Source of the DNA: a bacterium
GTDB lineage: Bacteria > Actinomycetota > Acidimicrobiia > Spongiisociales > JAENVV01
Length of the DNA: 64,000 bases
Reading direction: 5' to 3'
Assembly: GCA_024641305.1 (NCBI GenBank)
Contig: JAHEDI010000004.1
Span: forward strand, 2,126-66,125
The notes under the pieces were generated by a model. The model made no database searches. It was not told the origin of the DNA and saw only the letters and a program-made list of their open reading frames with translations. A program made the position numbers and the translations under genes. Of the stretch, positions 25,486 through 39,794 are shown piece after piece; position 1 is the first letter of the stretch; each line of letters starts with the position of its first letter.

Positions 25486-26859
25486 TCAACCTCCGATAAT
25501 CGATTGAATTTGATGAAGAAGCGCTTCGACCCGCTCGTCCGTACTCGCTTCGACGTTGATCCGAAGAACGGGTTCGGTATTTGACGCCCGAACATTGAAC
25601 CACTCATCGGCCCAACCGACGGTCAGCCCATCAAGACCATCCTGAGTGCCATCGCCAAAAGCAGCTGCCAGCCGCTCGATCGCCCCAGCCTTATCGACGA
25701 CCGACAGGTTGATTTCACCAGATTGGCAATACGGCTCCACTGTCGAGCGCAATTCGGAGAGGGGCCTGCCGGCTTCCGACATGACCTGGAGGAGAACCAA
25801 CATCGCCAGCATGCCGCTATCGGCTCGGAAGTTCTCCTTGAAGTAGTAATGGCCGCTGTGTTCGCCGCCGAAAACCGCCCCCGTCTCGGCCATGATCTGT
25901 TTGATATAACTGTGCCCGACCTTGGTCCGGATCGGGACACCGCCAGCTTTGAGAATGGTTTCGGCCACCGCCCTGGACGTAATGAGGTTATGGACGATCG
26001 AAGCTCCTGGTTTCCTTTCAAGAAACCACCGGGCGATGAGGGCGGTCGTAGTGGACCCCGATAGCGGCACGCCGAGTTCGTCGACGAAAAACGCTCGGTC
26101 GGCATCCCCATCAAAGGCGACGCCGAGGTCGGGATGATCCCTCACCACGAGTTCGACGAGGTCGACGAGGTTCTCTGGCTCAAGCGGGTTGGCAGGATGA
26201 TTTGGGAACGTCCCATCAGGCTCAAGATAAAGACCGACCAGCGAAGCCGCCGTTCGGGCAAAGACGTCCTCGACCACCACTCCCGCCATCCCATTGCCAC
26301 CATCGACCGCCACTTTCAGATCCGAGATGGCTGCTGCGTCGACAATCGAAAAGAGATGGTCAATGTATCCGCCTGCGATCGAGACCGTACGACGTCCACC
26401 TTGCGGAGCGACGTCTGGCAACGACTCCCCCGCCATCTGGCGAATATCGATGAGGCCGGATTCAACCCCGATCGGGCTGGCACCAGGGCCACACAACTTG
26501 ATCCCGTTGTATTCCGATGGATTGTGCGAGGCCGTGATCATGACTCCAGGCACCTCTTGAGCGCCTGAGGCGTAGTAGATCATGTCGGTAGCCACTTCAC
26601 CGGCATCGGCGACACTCAAGCCCCCGACCTGGATTCCAGTCATAAGAGCATCAGCCAACCACGGCGAGGAGTCGCGACAATCACGCCCGACGACGACCTC
26701 GAGGACGTTGGGATATTGGGCGGAAATGAAGCCGGCAAAGGCCCGGCCGATAGCCCGAGCCGCCTCGCCGTCCAGCTCACCAGTGTCGGTTCGCCCACGA
26801 ATGTCATAGGCCTTGAAGATGGCGTCGAGCTGAATTTGAGACTCCGTTGGCAGGGCCAA
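25486..26859 (-). CDS. manB: phosphomannomutase / phosphoglucomutase
   Basis: It has KAYDIRG, the active-site TASHNP, and GDGDADR. The ORF-track start at 27060 is an extension. The real start is near the TTG at 26857-26859. Confidence 0.85.
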   Translation of the reverse strand: MALPTESQIQLDAIFKAYDIRGRTDTGELDGEAARAIGRAFAGFISAQYPNVLEVVVGRDCRDSSPWLADALMTGIQVGGLSVADAGEVATDMIYYASGAQEVPGVMITASHNPSEYNGIKLCGPGASPIGVESGLIDIRQMAGESLPDVAPQGGRRTVSIAGGYIDHLFSIVDAAAISDLKVAVDGGNGMAGVVVEDVFARTAASLVGLYLEPDGTFPNHPANPLEPENLVDLVELVVRDHPDLGVAFDGDADRAFFVDELGVPLSGSTTTALIARWFLERKPGASIVHNLITSRAVAETILKAGGVPIRTKVGHSYIKQIMAETGAVFGGEHSGHYYFKENFRADSGMLAMLVLLQVMSEAGRPLSELRSTVEPYCQSGEINLSVVDKAGAIERLAAAFGDGTQDGLDGLTVGWADEWFNVRASNTEPVLRINVEASTDERVEALLHQIQSIIGG

Positions 26860-26907: not shown

Positions 26908-27633
26908 ATGCCTTTGCTTTCCATTGTTGTGCCGGTTCACAACGAGGCCGCCTACATCGCAGACTTCCTTCCGGCCATGACCAACGAAATCGTCGACGCC
27001 ACCGGCAGTCCGCAAGAGTTGATCGTCGTGGAGAACGGCTCGACCGACGGCACCGCCCAACTGGCCAATGATCTCTGCGAAAATCTCCGCACCCTCGGGT
27101 GGAAAGCCGAGGTCATCTCGCTGCCGTTCCCCGACTACGGAGCCGCCATGCGAGCCGGCTTCGAACAGTCACACGGCGACTGGGTCGTGAACTTCGACAT
27201 TGACTATTTCTCGGGCCCGTTTGTTGCCGGTCTGATCGCTACAAGCGCCGACATCGTCATCGCCTCAAAACGGGCCCCTGAAAGCGAAGACCACCGCAGT
27301 CTGCTGCGCCGGACTGGCACATTCGGATTCAACGTGCTTCTTAAATTCCTCGTTGGATCAACGGTCACGGATACCCATGGAATCAAGGCATTCCGAAGGA
27401 CGGTCATCGATTCCATGCTGGATACGGTGCAGTCCAACAAGGATCTCTTCGATACCGAACTGGTCATCCGATCCGAACGAGCCGGCTTCTCCATTGCCGA
27501 GGTACCGATCATCGTGGAAGAACGTCGGGCGGCCAGAACCCCCTTTGTGAAGCGAATCCCACGAACACTCAAAGGACTGGTTCAGCTCCGGGCATCGTTC
27601 GAAAGAGAACGTCGGAACACCAGGTCTCGATAA
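26908..27633 (+). CDS. GT2 glycosyltransferase, polyprenyl-phosphate sugar synthase type (Ppm1-D2/DPM1/GtrB-like)
   Basis: It begins LSIVVPVHNEA and has ENGSTDGT and a DxD. It is 241 aa, soluble, and carries the basic C-terminal helix typical of dolichyl/polyprenyl-phosphate hexose synthases. Confidence 0.8.
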   Translation: MPLLSIVVPVHNEAAYIADFLPAMTNEIVDATGSPQELIVVENGSTDGTAQLANDLCENLRTLGWKAEVISLPFPDYGAAMRAGFEQSHGDWVVNFDIDYFSGPFVAGLIATSADIVIASKRAPESEDHRSLLRRTGTFGFNVLLKFLVGSTVTDTHGIKAFRRTVIDSMLDTVQSNKDLFDTELVIRSERAGFSIAEVPIIVEERRAARTPFVKRIPRTLKGLVQLRASFERERRNTRSR

Positions 27634-28028
27634 CCGGCAAACTTCGGAAAAAGAACCAGTACGGTAGCGGCGACCTTGGCGCCGTTGAAGGCCGCCAGGT
27701 TGTCTCCGAACCACAGTTCAGCCAGTGCCACAAACCCGGACGTTACGGCCAGAGCGAATCCATTGACCAGGAAGAACGCCGCCGTCTCGCGCATCGACTT
27801 CTTCCCGTCGGTGATCAAGAACGTGAAACGACGGTTCATCAAATATGAGGCGCCGGTGGCGGTGGTAAACGCCAGCACAACCGAGACTTGGGAAGAAAAG
27901 CCCAAACCAGCTTTGAAGACATTGGCCAGCACAAAATCAAGAACCGTATTCAAGCCGCCAATGACGGCCAGCCTCATGAACTGATTGGCGCTGGTCCGGT
28001 TGAAGAAGCTCAGCAAATAGGCTTTCAT
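27582..28028 (-). CDS. GtrA family small membrane protein (flippase of polyprenyl-P-sugar systems)
   Basis: It is 148 aa with four predicted TM helices and resembles the GtrA family (LNTVLDFVL..., RRFTF). It overlaps the upstream large membrane protein gene by 4 nt. Confidence 0.75.
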   Translation of the reverse strand: MKAYLLSFFNRTSANQFMRLAVIGGLNTVLDFVLANVFKAGLGFSSQVSVVLAFTTATGASYLMNRRFTFLITDGKKSMRETAAFFLVNGFALAVTSGFVALAELWFGDNLAAFNGAKVAATVLVLFPKFAGYRDLVFRRSLSNDARS

Positions 28029-30460
28029 GCCTCTTTCCTTCTCGCGACGACAAAGCCGGCTACCAGCAGGGCAATTCCGGATGCCGTCATCGCAATACCA
28101 ACCTTCTCAAAGATGGTTCTGGTGAAATCCATCTCGACGTGACCCTCGGTGGGGACGACGATCATCAACGACGGACTGGCCCTCCACGGCCCGTCTGCTC
28201 CGGTAGCCTGCCAGTTCGGAAAGTACGACACCTTCACAAGGTGAGGTACCCCGATGGCGGTGGTATCGAATTCGAAGTGACCGTTATCACTCACAATATT
28301 CGACACGACCCCGGAATCCTTGAGTGGTGTCGATACGCTCTCAAGCAGAGAAAGGTCGTCGATTCGTGGCCAATCTGCCGGGCCGTCCGCCACCAGCCAA
28401 TTATCGAGGAGTTCGAGATCGTCGTACCATTCGAGCGCCACATCGTTGAAGTTCGACGCTTCCTCACTTCCCAGCCTAAGTCCACCTTCGGTTTCGAAGA
28501 CGACCGGCTGATTGACGGCAACGTCGACCAGCTGAGTCGGGGGCAACGCGAAGACCCGGTGTGGGTCAATGCGGGCGATCTCACGGAGTTCGGGATGGGC
28601 GAGCGCCTCCTCGGCGGCCTCAGGGGTAAACGTCACGTAATAATTGACTCCGTAGACGGCCAGGTGGGCGATACCGCGATCGAAGTCAAAGTTGTGATAG
28701 GTCAAACCAGGAATCGGATTCGACGGCCGGAAACTCATCTCACCGGCGTTGATGAAGTGAAACGGCGTGGTGATGGATGATTCAAAGAAGAGTCCCTCCA
28801 TCGAGGCTTGCCGAGTCCAGTAGGGAAACAGCATGAGCGCCATCGGCGTCCCGTACTCGCGGTCCATGTCGTTGTTGGCTTCCCACTGAATTCGCCCAGC
28901 CGGTAGAACGTCGACCGCTTCCATGAGCCGTTGGTACTGGTCAAATCCCGGTTTCTGTTCATAGCCGCTGAAGTTCCATGCGGCCCAGCCGGAAACGAAA
29001 CTTAATCCGGCCAGCGACTGGACGAGAATGAACCCGCTGGCCAGGAGCACCATCGACGGGCCAGTTTTGACTTTCGCCCCGGCGATCTCCACTCCCCCCC
29101 AAACGAGAATCGCCAACGCCGCAACGCCGCCTGCCCACCATTGGACCTCAACGGACCCTTTCCAAAATCCCGCCGCCAACGCAACCAGGGCCCCGATCAG
29201 GAGCGGCGCCTTGAGCCAACCAACTGAAATCCTGGTCGGTAGACGCCTGGCAACCGCCTTCGATGCAACCCCGACGGTGACACCAGTGAGCATCGATATG
29301 CCGAAGAACCAAAATGGCAGCAACCGACCATTCCAGAGCTTCCAGGTTCCTGAAAACCAACCCATCTGACTGGCGATCGTGGGGACCCAGAAGTACAAGA
29401 CCGGAAGGAACGTCAGGACGACCATCGGGGCCCAGTTCTTGGTTCGCCTGATCAGCCATCCCGCCCCGAACATCGCCGGAGGCAGCAAGAGCCAAATCTC
29501 GGACGGGAGGATCTCCCCCCAGGTCTTCAGCGGCACCCAGCTCATGTCAGAGGTTTGGTTGAGCCTGGCAATGAGCGGGACAGCCCAGAAGCCGGCCACT
29601 GCAAAGCCCCATAGCCAGACCACCCCGGTCTTGAGGAACCCCCGCTTCCAGAACAGGATTGGGATGCTCGCCAGCACGAACATCCCGGTCGTAATCACAT
29701 GCGATAGAGCCGTGCAAGCCAGCAACAGGACCGCCAGCGGAACATACCGTGGCGAAACCCGGACGGCCTTGATGAGGGTCGCCAGATAGAACAAACCCAA
29801 CGCAAAGGACCATGAATATGAAAATTCGCCAGCCATCGTCGACGGAGCATTCCCTCCGAAGATCGTGAACGACTCAATAAAGACGAAGGTTCCACCCGCT
29901 ACACCGGCCGCCGTGCCAACCCACCGGTCCAACCCCAAGGCCCGCCCGAACACATATGAGGCGGCCGGAGTAGCCAGCAAACCCGCCACCGTCACAATCT
30001 TGAAAGCCACGCCGTACGGAAGCAGCAGATCGAGAAAGACGATGACCAGTGAGGGCAAAGGGAAGTAGAAGTAGAAGGCGGGGAACCCGGCGAACCAGGC
30101 GTCACTCCAGCCAAGGATCTGGAAATTGGGCAGCAGATCATCCCGCAGGATGGCCGGTCCAAGGACATGGGCGCCCATATCCCCCCCGGTCGGGGTATTG
30201 ATTGTCAGAATGAGCCACGGTTGCACAGCGAAGAAAATCGCCGCCGTTACGGCGGCGATTGCAAGTCGCGGCACCCATGGGGACACCGCCTGGTCGGCGG
30301 TGCCCGAGGCCCTCCCGCTAGGCGCGGGCCTTCCTGGCGAGTTCCAGTACGTCCGCAAGCGCGATCTCTCGTCCTTGATGGTCCCACCATCGTTCGTCAC
30401 ACTTATGGCATGAGAAAAAATCGATCTCAGTACCGTCCGGTAACTTCTGGTGAATTTCAA
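28025..30460 (-). CDS. large polytopic membrane protein, putative GT-C fold glycosyltransferase (YfhO/PMT-like) with C-terminal extracytoplasmic domain
   Basis: About 13-15 hydrophobic helices occupy the first about 520 aa, followed by an about 290-aa soluble domain. Its operon context with GtrA and a GT2 polyprenyl-P-sugar synthase supports the call. The start may be the GTG near 30286 rather than 30460. Confidence 0.55.
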   Translation of the reverse strand: MKFTRSYRTVLRSIFSHAISVTNDGGTIKDERSRLRTYWNSPGRPAPSGRASGTADQAVSPWVPRLAIAAVTAAIFFAVQPWLILTINTPTGGDMGAHVLGPAILRDDLLPNFQILGWSDAWFAGFPAFYFYFPLPSLVIVFLDLLLPYGVAFKIVTVAGLLATPAASYVFGRALGLDRWVGTAAGVAGGTFVFIESFTIFGGNAPSTMAGEFSYSWSFALGLFYLATLIKAVRVSPRYVPLAVLLLACTALSHVITTGMFVLASIPILFWKRGFLKTGVVWLWGFAVAGFWAVPLIARLNQTSDMSWVPLKTWGEILPSEIWLLLPPAMFGAGWLIRRTKNWAPMVVLTFLPVLYFWVPTIASQMGWFSGTWKLWNGRLLPFWFFGISMLTGVTVGVASKAVARRLPTRISVGWLKAPLLIGALVALAAGFWKGSVEVQWWAGGVAALAILVWGGVEIAGAKVKTGPSMVLLASGFILVQSLAGLSFVSGWAAWNFSGYEQKPGFDQYQRLMEAVDVLPAGRIQWEANNDMDREYGTPMALMLFPYWTRQASMEGLFFESSITTPFHFINAGEMSFRPSNPIPGLTYHNFDFDRGIAHLAVYGVNYYVTFTPEAAEEALAHPELREIARIDPHRVFALPPTQLVDVAVNQPVVFETEGGLRLGSEEASNFNDVALEWYDDLELLDNWLVADGPADWPRIDDLSLLESVSTPLKDSGVVSNIVSDNGHFEFDTTAIGVPHLVKVSYFPNWQATGADGPWRASPSLMIVVPTEGHVEMDFTRTIFEKVGIAMTASGIALLVAGFVVARRKEA

Positions 30461-37223: not shown

Positions 37224-38149
37224 CGGTACGAGCGAACCGTCTCGGCTACTCCTTCGACAACCGCCGTCCACGGTGCCCAATCAAGGCCTCGCACGGCTGC
37301 CGATGCGTCAAGGGCGGACCTCTCGATATCTCCCGGTTTGGGAGCTTCGAAAATCGGTGTGGCCGGTCCTCCGGTTGCTTTGGCAATGAGCCCATACAAA
37401 TCCGAGATACTCGTCTCCGTGCCAGTACCGACGTGATAGGTCCGCCCGACATTCGTGGTTCGACTCGCCCTGAAGAAGGCGTCTGCCACATCTGCCACAA
37501 AGACAAAATCGCGGGTCTGGCCGCCCCCGCCGAAAATGGTTCCTGGTCTTCCCGCCAGCAACGTCTCAACAAAGATGGCCACCACCCCACCCTCAGCATG
37601 GGCTCTCTGCCGCGGCCCGTAGACGTTGGCTGGAGCGATCACCACATGGTCGAGGCCATACGTTCGCTGATACATGGCCAAATATTCGCTCGCCGCCAAC
37701 TTGGCGACGCCATACGGCGAAATCGGACGAGGCTTCTGCGTCTCCTTCGTTGGGATCGCCGAACCGGGCCCGGCAAGCGCACCGCCCGATGAGGCAAACA
37801 CAATCCTCCCTGCCCCGGATCGGCGGCAGGCCTCCAACACCGAAATCGTCCCCAGAACATTGACCTGAGCGTCGTACATCGGGTCTGCCATGGAAACCGA
37901 CACCGAGGCCTGGGCGGCAAGATGGAACACCGTGTCGGGTCGGAACCGCCCCAGAACCACACCAAGGTCACGATCAAGAATGTCGATGGTGTGGACCTTC
38001 ACACTGCCGAATTCACGAGCGGACTTCAGATTGTCGAGATGGCCGGAAGACAAGTCATCGATGACCAGGACCTCGTCGCCCTCATTGACGAGCCTGTCAA
38101 CAAGATGCGACCCGATAAACCCGGCTCCGCCTGTCACAACAGCTCTCAT
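37220..38149 (-). CDS. NAD-dependent epimerase/dehydratase (GalE-like SDR)
   Basis: It has VTGGAGFIGSHL and YxxxK (YGVAKLA). The start is taken at MRAVVTGGAG. Confidence 0.8.
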   Translation of the reverse strand: MRAVVTGGAGFIGSHLVDRLVNEGDEVLVIDDLSSGHLDNLKSAREFGSVKVHTIDILDRDLGVVLGRFRPDTVFHLAAQASVSVSMADPMYDAQVNVLGTISVLEACRRSGAGRIVFASSGGALAGPGSAIPTKETQKPRPISPYGVAKLAASEYLAMYQRTYGLDHVVIAPANVYGPRQRAHAEGGVVAIFVETLLAGRPGTIFGGGGQTRDFVFVADVADAFFRASRTTNVGRTYHVGTGTETSISDLYGLIAKATGGPATPIFEAPKPGDIERSALDASAAVRGLDWAPWTAVVEGVAETVRSYR

Positions 38150-38862
38150 TCTGACCGGCTCCAATGACGTCTCGGCACGAACCGCCACTTCACGAGGGCG
38201 ACCAGCGCCGGGAGGCCGTCTTTCCAGCTGATCTTCTTGCCTTCGTCAACTTCGCGACCAGCGTAGGTAATCGGAACTTCCCAGATACGATGGCCAGACC
38301 GGAGAAGCTTGGCCGTAATCTCTGGTTCGATCTCAAAGCGGTTCGAGGTCAAAACCAGACTCTGAGCGACGTTCGTATCAATCATTTTTGAACATGTCTC
38401 CATGTCTGAGATCGTGGTGTTGTAGAGGACATTGGTCACCAGGCTCAAGAAGCGATTTCCAACCCAGTGCCAGAACATCATATTGCGACGCTCACCGGTG
38501 AATCTGGACCCGTAAACCACTTTGGCCAATCCCTCATTAAGCGGCCGAAGCATGGCCACCCAATCACGTGGATCGTATTCAAGATCGGCGTCATAAATGA
38601 CCAACACATCGCCCGTGGCCGCTTCGATCCCTCTCCGAACCGCCGCCCCTTTTCCCTGATTGGACGGCTGCTCGATGAAACGAACGGTCGAGTCCACCAA
38701 TTGGCGCACGACCTCCTGGGTGCCATCGGTCGAACCGTCATCGACGACGATCAGTTCCCGATCGACCGGCAGGAGTTCATCGCGAGCGCGTCGGATCGCT
38801 TCGGCGATCGTCCGCCGCTCGTTGAAAACCGGGATTATTACCGTCAGCTTGGAATAGGTCAT
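38146..38862 (-). CDS. GT2 glycosyltransferase (dolichyl-phosphate-hexose-synthase-like)
   Basis: It begins LTVIIPVFNE and has VDDGSTDGT and a DxD (YDAD). The start is taken at MTYSKL, which overlaps the uxs stop by 4 nt. Confidence 0.8.
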   Translation of the reverse strand: MTYSKLTVIIPVFNERRTIAEAIRRARDELLPVDRELIVVDDGSTDGTQEVVRQLVDSTVRFIEQPSNQGKGAAVRRGIEAATGDVLVIYDADLEYDPRDWVAMLRPLNEGLAKVVYGSRFTGERRNMMFWHWVGNRFLSLVTNVLYNTTISDMETCSKMIDTNVAQSLVLTSNRFEIEPEITAKLLRSGHRIWEVPITYAGREVDEGKKISWKDGLPALVALVKWRFVPRRHWSRSE

Positions 38863-39794
38863 GTCTGGGCTCTCAGGTACTCGACGGTTCTTTCCAAACC
38901 GGAGGCAAGATCCGTCGTGGCTCGCCATCCCGTCGCATCATGCATTGCCCGCAAGTCAGGTCTCCGGACTTTAGGGTCACCATCGGGAAGCGGCACAAAG
39001 GTGCGTCCTGACCGGCCGAGCAATTCTTGCACAGCGTCGGCCAATTCAAGCATGCTGATCTCGACATCATTTCCAAGGTTTAGGGGTCCGGGTAATTGTC
39101 GGTCGACAACCATCATCAGACCATCGACAATGTCGTCGACGTAACAAAAGGACCGAGTCTGGGATCCGTCACCGAAGAGCGGCAACGGCTTGCCCGCCAA
39201 GGCCGCAGAGATGAACGCGGTCACGACACGGCCGTCTTGTGGATTCATACCCGGTCCATAGGTATTAAAGAGCCGAACCACGGACGATCTCGTATGACGT
39301 TCCGATCTCCGGTAGGCGTACACGAGAGCCTCGGCATATCGTTTCCCCTCGTCATAACAAGCGCGCGGTCCCCGAACGTCGACAGACCCCGGGTAGCTCT
39401 CAACCTGCGGATGAACTTCCGGATCACCGTAGACCTCAGAAGTCGACGTAAACAGCAAGTGAGCACCCGATTCGGCGGCCAGATCAAGCATTTGTCGAGT
39501 CCCTTCGGCTGCCGTGCGAAGCGTCCCGACCGGATCCAACAGATACCGGGGCGGCGAGGCCGGCGAGGCCAAATGGCAGATCAATTGGAACGGTTGCCCC
39601 AGCAATGGCGGCGACACGACCGACCCCTCCACAATGGTGGCGGGAAGGTCGGCCGCAGCAGGCGATGGAGACGAGAAATCATCGAGCACCGTGACATCCC
39701 AGCCATCGGCATTGAGGCGCCTTACCAAATGGCAGCCCAGGAAACCCGCCCCACCGGTAACCAGCGCCCGTCCAGGTTCCAAACCAACCCTCAC
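38859..39794 (-). CDS. uxs: UDP-glucuronate decarboxylase (UDP-xylose synthase)
   Basis: It has GGAGFLG, a YxxxK, and GDGSQTRSFCYVDD. It sits directly downstream of ugd. Confidence 0.8.
   Translation of the reverse strand: MRVGLEPGRALVTGGAGFLGCHLVRRLNADGWDVTVLDDFSSPSPAAADLPATIVEGSVVSPPLLGQPFQLICHLASPASPPRYLLDPVGTLRTAAEGTRQMLDLAAESGAHLLFTSTSEVYGDPEVHPQVESYPGSVDVRGPRACYDEGKRYAEALVYAYRRSERHTRSSVVRLFNTYGPGMNPQDGRVVTAFISAALAGKPLPLFGDGSQTRSFCYVDDIVDGLMMVVDRQLPGPLNLGNDVEISMLELADAVQELLGRSGRTFVPLPDGDPKVRRPDLRAMHDATGWRATTDLASGLERTVEYLRAQT

Follow-up and report, generated by a model that had tools for sequence, protein, structure and literature searches.

The 64,000-nucleotide stretch analysed here (contig JAHEDI010000004.1, positions 2,126 to 66,125, hereafter the window) belongs to an uncultured member of the Acidimicrobiia and has a GC content of ~60%; its closest loci are in Acidimicrobiia metagenome-assembled genomes (MAGs), at protein identities of at most 96%. 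Within a core block of cell-envelope genes it carries what we read, with a probability of roughly 0.75, as a multi-component system for transmembrane (extracytoplasmic) glycosylation. Its components are a large protein with the fold of the GT-C glycosyltransferases (here the GT-C protein), a soluble GT2-family glycosyltransferase (GT2a) predicted to make a polyprenyl-phosphate-linked sugar, a small GtrA-family membrane protein, and the phosphomannomutase-type enzyme encoded by manB. The reading rests on observations of fold, family relations, topology logic and genetic linkage. An initial annotation of this DNA had described the first three genes as one Gtr-type module beside manB. The three open reading frames (ORFs) proved real, as judged by domain matches and homologues, and the three-component reading was upheld; the module is not an operon, however, because GT2a is convergent on the opposite strand, and GtrA is missing from most related loci.

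The large ORF had 1610 homologues among 8000 scored candidates in a word-indexed search. An exhaustive search returned 2992 representatives of 50%-identity clusters at E ≤ 1e-3, 819 of them at 1e-30. The protein matched nothing in Pfam or NCBIfam, even at E ≤ 10, and comparison with the PDB by sequence and profile gave only noise (HLA chains, a G-protein-coupled receptor). An AlphaFold2 model built on the homologue alignment was of high confidence (pLDDT 92.7, pTM 0.92), and when it was used as the query in Foldseek against the PDB, ranks 1-20 were all GT-C glycosyltransferases, including AftD (E 3.8e-8), ArnT (1e-7), STT3 (1.9e-6) and PglB (2.1e-5). Further GT-C matches were AftA, AglB, DPY19, EmbB, PimE and Pmt4. 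Sequence identity to these structural matches was only 10-14%. As modelled, the protein has a GT-C fold of the GT-C-A class, which is what the initial annotation had expected a fold comparison to return.

That annotation could give the protein no family name; it turned out instead to be a divergent relative of PF10131. At E ≤ 0.1, 20 of 47 aligned full-length homologues matched PF10131, with a top score of 83.6 bits, and four homologues scanned singly passed the gathering threshold of 26.4 bits (P0221, 83.6 bits; P0130, 43.2; P0160, 39.3; P0174, 29.3). P0221 aligned over its full length with the window protein (3.3e-88). The window protein itself fell below the PF10131 gathering threshold and lay outside the YfhO family model PF09586, to which 2 of the 47 homologues gave weak matches under the cut-off (E 0.0026). 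Judged by transitive homology, the window protein is a divergent sister branch of PF10131, and the Acidimicrobiia branch has on these comparisons diverged past the detection limit of the PF10131 model. PF10131, named 'PTPS_related', belongs to the GT-C clan CL0111, where it is entered as a family of unknown function (PMC7801869); the NCBI label is 6-pyruvoyl-tetrahydropterin synthase-related protein. The PF10131-type family was also found in relatives named Thermoleophilia, Aquicultor and Rubrobacteridae, several of these loci having the same GT2/GtrA neighbours. There was no GT-C paralogue within the window and no GT-C homologue among phages or plasmids.

Secondary structure and hydropathy gave the GT-C protein ~13 transmembrane (TM) helices, an acidic domain of ~290 aa (44 D/E versus 17 K/R), a final TM helix and a short, basic C-terminal stretch. 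The large soluble domain reported earlier is therefore present, though not at the C terminus, where it had been placed, since the helix and the basic stretch come after it. In the 47-sequence alignment, the motif TTPTGGDxGAHV follows directly after TM1 in loop 1; the motif carries an invariant D36 and an H40 that is kept in at least 90% of the sequences. E154 is near-invariant and H196 invariant. We infer that D36 has a catalytic role, and the first loop has the aspartate that had been proposed as a check on the GT-C assignment.

Natural fusions, scored among the best 150 of the 50%-identity representatives, supplied information on both topology and partnership. The GT-C protein was fused to a C-terminal GT2 domain in four clusters (P0128, P0233, P0158 and P0186), to an N-terminal GT2 domain in one (P0225) and to a C-terminal phosphomannomutase (PMM) in two (P0219 and P0257). 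Several of these fusions are backed by many independent contigs, some of them 4.4-4.7 Mb long, and one is a RefSeq protein, from Candidatus Poriferisodalis. In all C-terminal fusions the outer domain is parted from the cytoplasmic enzyme by just one TM helix plus a hydrophilic linker, and in P0225 the cytoplasmic GT2 precedes TM1, which sets TM1 in-to-out. Because of this architecture, loop 1, where the invariant Asp lies, and the 290-aa domain can be assigned to the extracytoplasmic side with no topology predictor needed. The side suggested for the soluble domain was hence supported, the domain being one TM helix away from the cytoplasmic GT2 or PMM.

In the PMM fusions, which belong to some Acidimicrobiales (P0219/P0257; locus L081, 6001-10077), the GT-C protein is joined through a C-terminal TM helix and an acidic linker of ~90 aa to a complete phosphomannomutase, which puts a sugar-phosphate mutase onto a membrane glycosyltransferase. 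An apparent GT-C::GtrA::GT2 triple fusion (P0191, 1196 aa) was set aside: it occurs on one 46.8-kb contig, has no TM anchor and would have an inconsistent topology. Its junction is rich in Pro, Arg, Gly and Ala, as is typical of an out-of-frame read, and the fusion most likely arose from an assembly frameshift that ran a GT-C gene into the GtrA::GT2 gene next to it downstream. Even so, the protein retains the GtrA::GT2 architecture in its C-terminal part.

Gene linkage was followed in a related set of 80 Acidimicrobiia loci from distinct genomes. The GT-C gene was followed by a convergent GT2a in 78 of them, and the contigs of the other two end early. Also conserved across the set were the upstream Zn-ribbon gene, the DUF6788-like, DUF3499, DUF5719 and GT2-membrane-fusion genes, and fbiA. 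Among more distant loci, a marine relative with a GT-C identity of ~35% (L085) has the same layout of GT-C, GtrA, convergent GT2 and manB, and in L084 the GT-C gene is followed by a single GtrA::GT2 polypeptide and then manB. In unrelated contexts we found a co-directional GtrA, GT2 and PF10131 operon (L089) and a GT2 gene followed by a PF10131 gene (L088, Aquicultor). L083 has a divergent GT2/PF10131 pair, and in L087 (Thermoleophilia) a GtrA gene lies close upstream. Recurrence of the GT-C/GT2a pair in unrelated contexts, as read from these sequences, supports a functional link.

Alternatively, the GT-C and GT2a genes might be adjacent merely by inherited order, the GT-C donor being made elsewhere or the GT-C protein being non-catalytic. 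Their opposite strands would fit this, as would the PMM-fusion lineage that has no GT2 within 6 kb and the surrounding block, which is presumably conserved in other actinobacteria; we nevertheless hold it to be very improbable, given that the pairing recurs outside this block, that fusions in both orders (GT-C::GT2 and GT2::GT-C) occur in several independent clusters, and that the Asp, His and Glu residues named above are invariant or near-invariant. Our preferred reading, in which the two enzymes work together, also gives indirect support for a polyprenyl-phosphate-linked sugar as the GT-C donor; this donor is predicted because the GT-C protein is adjacent or fused to a GT2 of the dolichyl-phosphate mannose synthase (DPMS)/ArnC/GtrB class.

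The class of GT2a was assigned from its domain and profile matches. The protein matched PF00535 at 70 bits, and a profile built from 17 orthologues had as its top hits ArnC (1.8e-24), the DPMS of Pyrococcus furiosus (PfDPMS, 5mlz; 3e-19, positions 3-200) and the Synechocystis GtrB sll0501 (3.9e-19). GT2a has a GT-A domain related to these across its whole length, the acceptor half included; generic GT2 enzymes align with the profile over the N-terminal, nucleotide-binding half only. Its motifs are NFDIDY, which holds the DxD (D97 and D99, both invariant), and DTHGxKAFR. Neither GT2a nor its 78 orthologues showed a convincing TM segment; what is conserved is a basic amphipathic tail, and GT2a thus lacks C-terminal TM helices of its own such as those of GtrB, ArnC, CsbB and PfDPMS. 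There are known soluble synthases that work with a distinct membrane protein as partner (PMC8035078). GT2a is predicted to be a polyprenyl-phosphate sugar synthase of the ArnC/DPMS/GtrB class, in agreement with the initial annotation; its profile does not separate the three as to sugar. The GT2 neighbours in L085, L088 and L089 are GT2a orthologues (41-44% identity), and the GT2 domain fused in P0128 is 40% identical to GT2a. The identity of these four to a second GT2 of the window is only 22-26%.

This second enzyme (GT2b, 260 aa, 38146-38928, minus strand) is likewise soluble and DPMS-like, and stands nearer than GT2a both to PfDPMS (1.5e-17, the match spanning the entire catalytic domain) and to ArnC. 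Its gene adjoins ugd and two epimerase/dehydratase-family genes, and an LCP ligase gene lies just upstream. By analogy with the Arn pathway, which this layout recalls, GT2b suggests a second lipid-linked donor; this donor, perhaps a pentose or uronic-acid derivative, would require its own GT-C partner.

The GtrA protein of the window is, on sequence, a bona fide PF04138 member. It is small, has four hydrophobic helices by hydropathy and matched the model at positions 3-117 of 117 (58.6 bits, 8.8e-16; cut-off 26.1), a full-length match that secures the four-TM GtrA identity first given to it. GtrA was present in only 6 of the 80 related loci, the six closest, and the conserved core is taken to be the two-gene GT-C/GT2a pair because the other 74 loci have none. 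Its patchy presence at the locus implies at least four changes on a protein tree that is unrooted and has long branches. That GtrA-family proteins translocate a polyprenyl-phosphate sugar is no more than a proposal, even where the first-described members are concerned (PMC11127046, PMC12992685), and the GtrA-like domain attached to DPMS binds flipped dolichyl-phosphate mannose (PMC12992685). Such binding is, by analogy, in keeping with the GtrA::GT2 fusions and makes an anchor harder to tell from a flippase, and GtrA may act as a part of the synthase and not as a free-standing flippase.

Taken further, GtrA would serve the synthase as a membrane subunit that anchors or activates GT2a, and any flipping would fall to the complex, to another protein or to the GT-C enzyme. 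We regard this as possible, though short of probable. It is consistent with the GtrA::GT2 polypeptide that follows the GT-C gene in L084 (and with the same architecture in the C-terminal part of P0191), with the want of a TM helix in GT2a, and with the large majority of related loci that have no neighbouring GtrA. In archaeal DPMS the TM domain is likewise of the PF04138 type and is covalently joined to the catalytic domain (PMC12992685), and a soluble GT-A enzyme that needs a small membrane partner, GacI/GacJ, has been reviewed (PMC8035078). However, mutants in the TM domain of PfDPMS show no direct catalytic part for it, and the flipped product is bound there, which favours transport (PMC12992685); genetic data show that the glycosylation of teichoic acids requires GtcA (PMC7389260). 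The subunit and flippase roles are, moreover, not mutually exclusive.

Mannose is likely to be the lipid-linked sugar, and is favoured because of the GT-C::PMM fusions and because in relatives manB is followed by a gene for a phosphoglucose/phosphomannose isomerase (PGI/PMI)-type enzyme, with a ManC-type gene nearby in L085. The nucleotide sugar would then be GDP-mannose, to which we give somewhat better than even odds, UDP-glucose or another sugar being the alternative. The same architecture could indeed serve a non-mannose lipid-linked sugar, either polyprenyl-phosphate glucose (by way of glucose-1-phosphate and UDP-glucose), an amino sugar or some other; this is a serious competitor, at a little under even odds. 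The ManB-type enzyme scored best on a bifunctional PMM/phosphoglucomutase model, NCBIfam PRK09542 (536.6 bits, under the curated cut-off of 618). GT2a scores ArnC above DPMS, and DPMS equal to the glucose enzyme GtrB; it is GT2b, not GT2a, that is nearer to the mannose-specific PfDPMS; and tblastn found no manC, PMI, Trm112 or Rce1 gene within the window. Against a non-mannose sugar stand the PMM fusions, the isomerase and ManC-type genes of the relatives, and the position of manB, which in other actinobacteria we take to belong to the GDP-mannose route. The adjacency of manB probably also reflects a gene order shared among actinobacteria, and it is because of this, together with the bifunctional enzyme family, that mannose is called only likely. 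The link to manB made in the initial annotation is accordingly supported, by synteny and by the fusions, and the polyprenyl-phosphomannose donor drawn from it is held as likely only.

The enzymatic activities, sugar identity, flipping and acceptor that complete the scheme are what we infer from these observations. ManB would make a hexose-1-phosphate that is converted to a nucleotide sugar, and GT2a, acting as a peripheral protein on the inner side of the membrane, would load polyprenyl monophosphate with the sugar. The lipid-linked sugar would then reach the outer face with the aid of the four-helix GtrA, which probably touches GT2a. Finally, the 753-aa GT-C protein would move the sugar to an acceptor by means of its Asp-containing outer loop 1, the ~290-aa outer domain probably holding the acceptor. 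Modelled alone (pLDDT 88.4), that domain had weak, non-significant fold matches to small beta-sandwich pieces of glycosidases and to the C-terminal domain of AglB (E 0.39). It gives no reading of the acceptor, because no PDB match was significant.

Our best guess for the acceptor is a wall-linked glycopolymer or a lipoglycan, given the adjoining genes for synthase, LCP-ligase and nucleotide-sugar functions. The neighbours in the window include genes for a GT2-membrane fusion, DUF5719, an LCP ligase, Ugd, epimerase/dehydratase-family enzymes and a class A penicillin-binding protein. A protein acceptor, with Pmt-like O-glycosylation of secreted proteins or lipoproteins, appears unlikely. The fold matches do include STT3, PglB, AglB, DPY19 and Pmt4, the non-significant AglB match is to its C-terminal globular domain, and the GT-C gene is core and vertically conserved, as expected for a housekeeping modification; the top matches AftD and ArnT, however, modify polysaccharide and lipid, the Pfam and NCBIfam scans returned no PMT or MIR domains, and the GT2-membrane fusion, DUF5719, LCP-ligase and nucleotide-sugar neighbours argue for an envelope polymer.

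Several points weigh against the system as we read it. The genes of the module are not co-transcribed, GT2a being convergent. Of the 80 related loci, 74 have no GtrA gene inside 6 kb, and there GtrA is either dispensable or encoded elsewhere, and no GT2 lies within 6 kb in the PMM-fusion lineage (L081). GT2b (38146-38928) could provide a different donor. The window GT-C protein matched neither the PF10131 nor the YfhO models at E ≤ 10, no characterised or biochemically studied member of its family was found in the searchable literature, and the outer domain alone had nothing significant among PDB folds (top match AftD, E 0.07). The manB/DUF3499/fbiA block is, we assume, common to other actinobacteria, which would be another cause of the manB adjacency, and the manB enzyme family is bifunctional, acting on the phosphates of mannose as well as of glucose, which bears on the identity of the lipid-linked sugar.

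The coordinates of the locus are given in Table 1. Two starts differ from those of the longest ORFs. The first 58 codons of the 811-aa ORF initially reported for the GT-C protein overlap the Zn-ribbon gene in a different frame, and one GT-C orthologue begins MSPWVPRL. Because of this overlap with a conserved gene and this orthologue start, the true start is most likely GTG 30286, with a product of 753 and not 811 aa. The manB ORF is open to 27060 and would overlap GT2a; homology begins near TTG 26859, which, placed by that boundary, is the probable start and leaves a gap of ~48 nt between the divergent manB and GT2a genes. The GT-C gene is upstream of GtrA and joined to it by an ATGA overlap. 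GtrA and GT2a converge with their 3' ends sharing 52 nt (27582-27633). Because GT2a is convergent, it does not form one operon, and is not co-transcribed, with the GT-C and GtrA genes. The 3' overlap leaves no space for a terminator, and transcription on opposite strands may interfere as a consequence. A convergent GT2a/GtrA overlap of ~40 nt was also seen in the distant marine relative (L085, 7650-7689).

Table 1. Genes of the glycosylation locus, with positions in the window and the evidence for each.
Gene or product	Position	Strand	Evidence
manB, phosphomannomutase/phosphoglucomutase, putative hexose-1-phosphate supplier	25486..26859	-	Four PGM_PMM Pfam domains, TASHNP motif
GT2a, 241-aa glycosyltransferase without TM helix, predicted polyprenyl-phosphate hexose synthase	26908..27633	+	PF00535, profile matches
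GtrA-family four-TM protein, 148 aa, proposed flippase and/or GT2a membrane partner	27582..28028	-	PF04138
GT-C-fold glycosyltransferase, 753 aa, divergent PF10131 relative	28025..30286 (ORF open to 30460)	-	AlphaFold2 model, Foldseek, homologues
Zn-ribbon gene (CPxC...CxxC), 58 aa	30318..30494	-	Read from sequence; tblastn in related loci

The Zn-ribbon gene, whose product has the pattern MMCPTCR...CHKCDERWW, was recovered by tblastn at 79 of the 80 related loci, each time directly upstream of the GT-C gene. In L081 and L082 small unnamed ORFs fill its position. Two further genes occur near the locus in relatives and are absent from the window: one for a DUF2079 membrane protein (L081, 11656-13149, minus strand) and one for an Rce1-like CAAX protease directly upstream of the Zn-ribbon and GT-C genes (L081, L082 and L086). 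The full Acidimicrobiia-type locus also occurs on nine contigs whose labels read Boseongicola (Paracoccaceae) or Acidobacteriota (L012, L022, L029, L032, L036, L037, L042, L047 and L052). They are probably mis-binned or mislabelled MAG contigs, because they have the full locus and are nested in the Acidimicrobiia protein tree.

The envelope chemistry of the Acidimicrobiia, which are widespread and for the most part uncultured actinobacteria, has received little study. The present analysis proposes a concrete pathway for a family with thousands of members (2992 50%-identity clusters) and no assigned function, together with its dedicated donor synthase, and indicates that the current annotations of the family, 'pterin synthase-related' or 'hypothetical', are misleading. 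That GtrA is variously separate, fused to the synthase or absent from the locus bears on how polyprenyl-phosphate sugars cross the membrane. If the biochemistry is confirmed, a new CAZy glycosyltransferase family is probable, for which GT136 is a precedent (PMC11127046). A bolder conjecture, which we think unlikely, is that the GT-C protein founds a new, experimentally untouched family for a core, vertically inherited envelope glycosylation, found in Acidimicrobiia and in the Thermoleophilia, Aquicultor and Rubrobacteridae relatives, in which the synthase is physically coupled to the transferase (several lineages have the two fused, and most lack a GtrA beside them) and the sugar is handed over, and perhaps flipped, within their complex with no free flippase.

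Three-component glycosylation systems have been described (PMC5836110, PMC7389260, PMC8035078, PMC11127046). The same logic of a GT2 polyprenyl-phosphate sugar synthase, a GtrA-family protein and a large polytopic GT-C protein is seen in the CsbB/GtcA/YfhO (GtlA/GtcA/GtlB) systems for teichoic-acid glycosylation in Firmicutes (PMC5836110, PMC7389260, PMC8035078). The window differs from these in that its GT-C protein has no PF09586 match, its GT2a is soluble where theirs is membrane-anchored, its host belongs to a different phylum, and its gene pair is core-syntenic and sometimes fused. Like the window GT-C protein, YfhO has a big outer domain ahead of its last TM helix. To our knowledge, the organism of the window is not one that makes teichoic acids.

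The GtrA/GtrB/GtrC systems for O-antigen glucosylation in Shigella and Salmonella phages have the same three roles, and GT2a is related to GtrB at the profile level (PMC11127046). GtrB has C-terminal TM helices, in contrast to GT2a, and the GtrC families are unrelated in sequence to the window GT-C protein. The window module is chromosomal and, with synteny conserved at the level of the class, it is not the co-directional three-gene cassette on a mobile element that defines a Gtr-type operon. The ArnC/ArnE-F/ArnT system and the mycobacterial enzymes AftD, AftA, EmbB, PimE and Pmt provide the best structural matches to the GT-C protein and the best sequence matches to GT2a. Some of these GT-C enzymes also have large outer domains, whereas that of the window has no significant structural match, and no arabinose or aminoarabinose donor genes lie beside the window GT-C gene.

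Type-III DPMS of P. furiosus unites a GT2 catalytic domain and a GtrA-like four-helix domain, as in the window pair (5mlz; PMC12992685). In the window the parts are in two genes, and in the bacterial fusions their order is reversed, GtrA being N-terminal; type III DPMS was restricted to archaea by its authors (PMC12992685). The logic of the window system is already established, and diverse GT-C components are to be expected within it; this GT-C family, its dedicated synthase, their core conservation and their fusions are undescribed.

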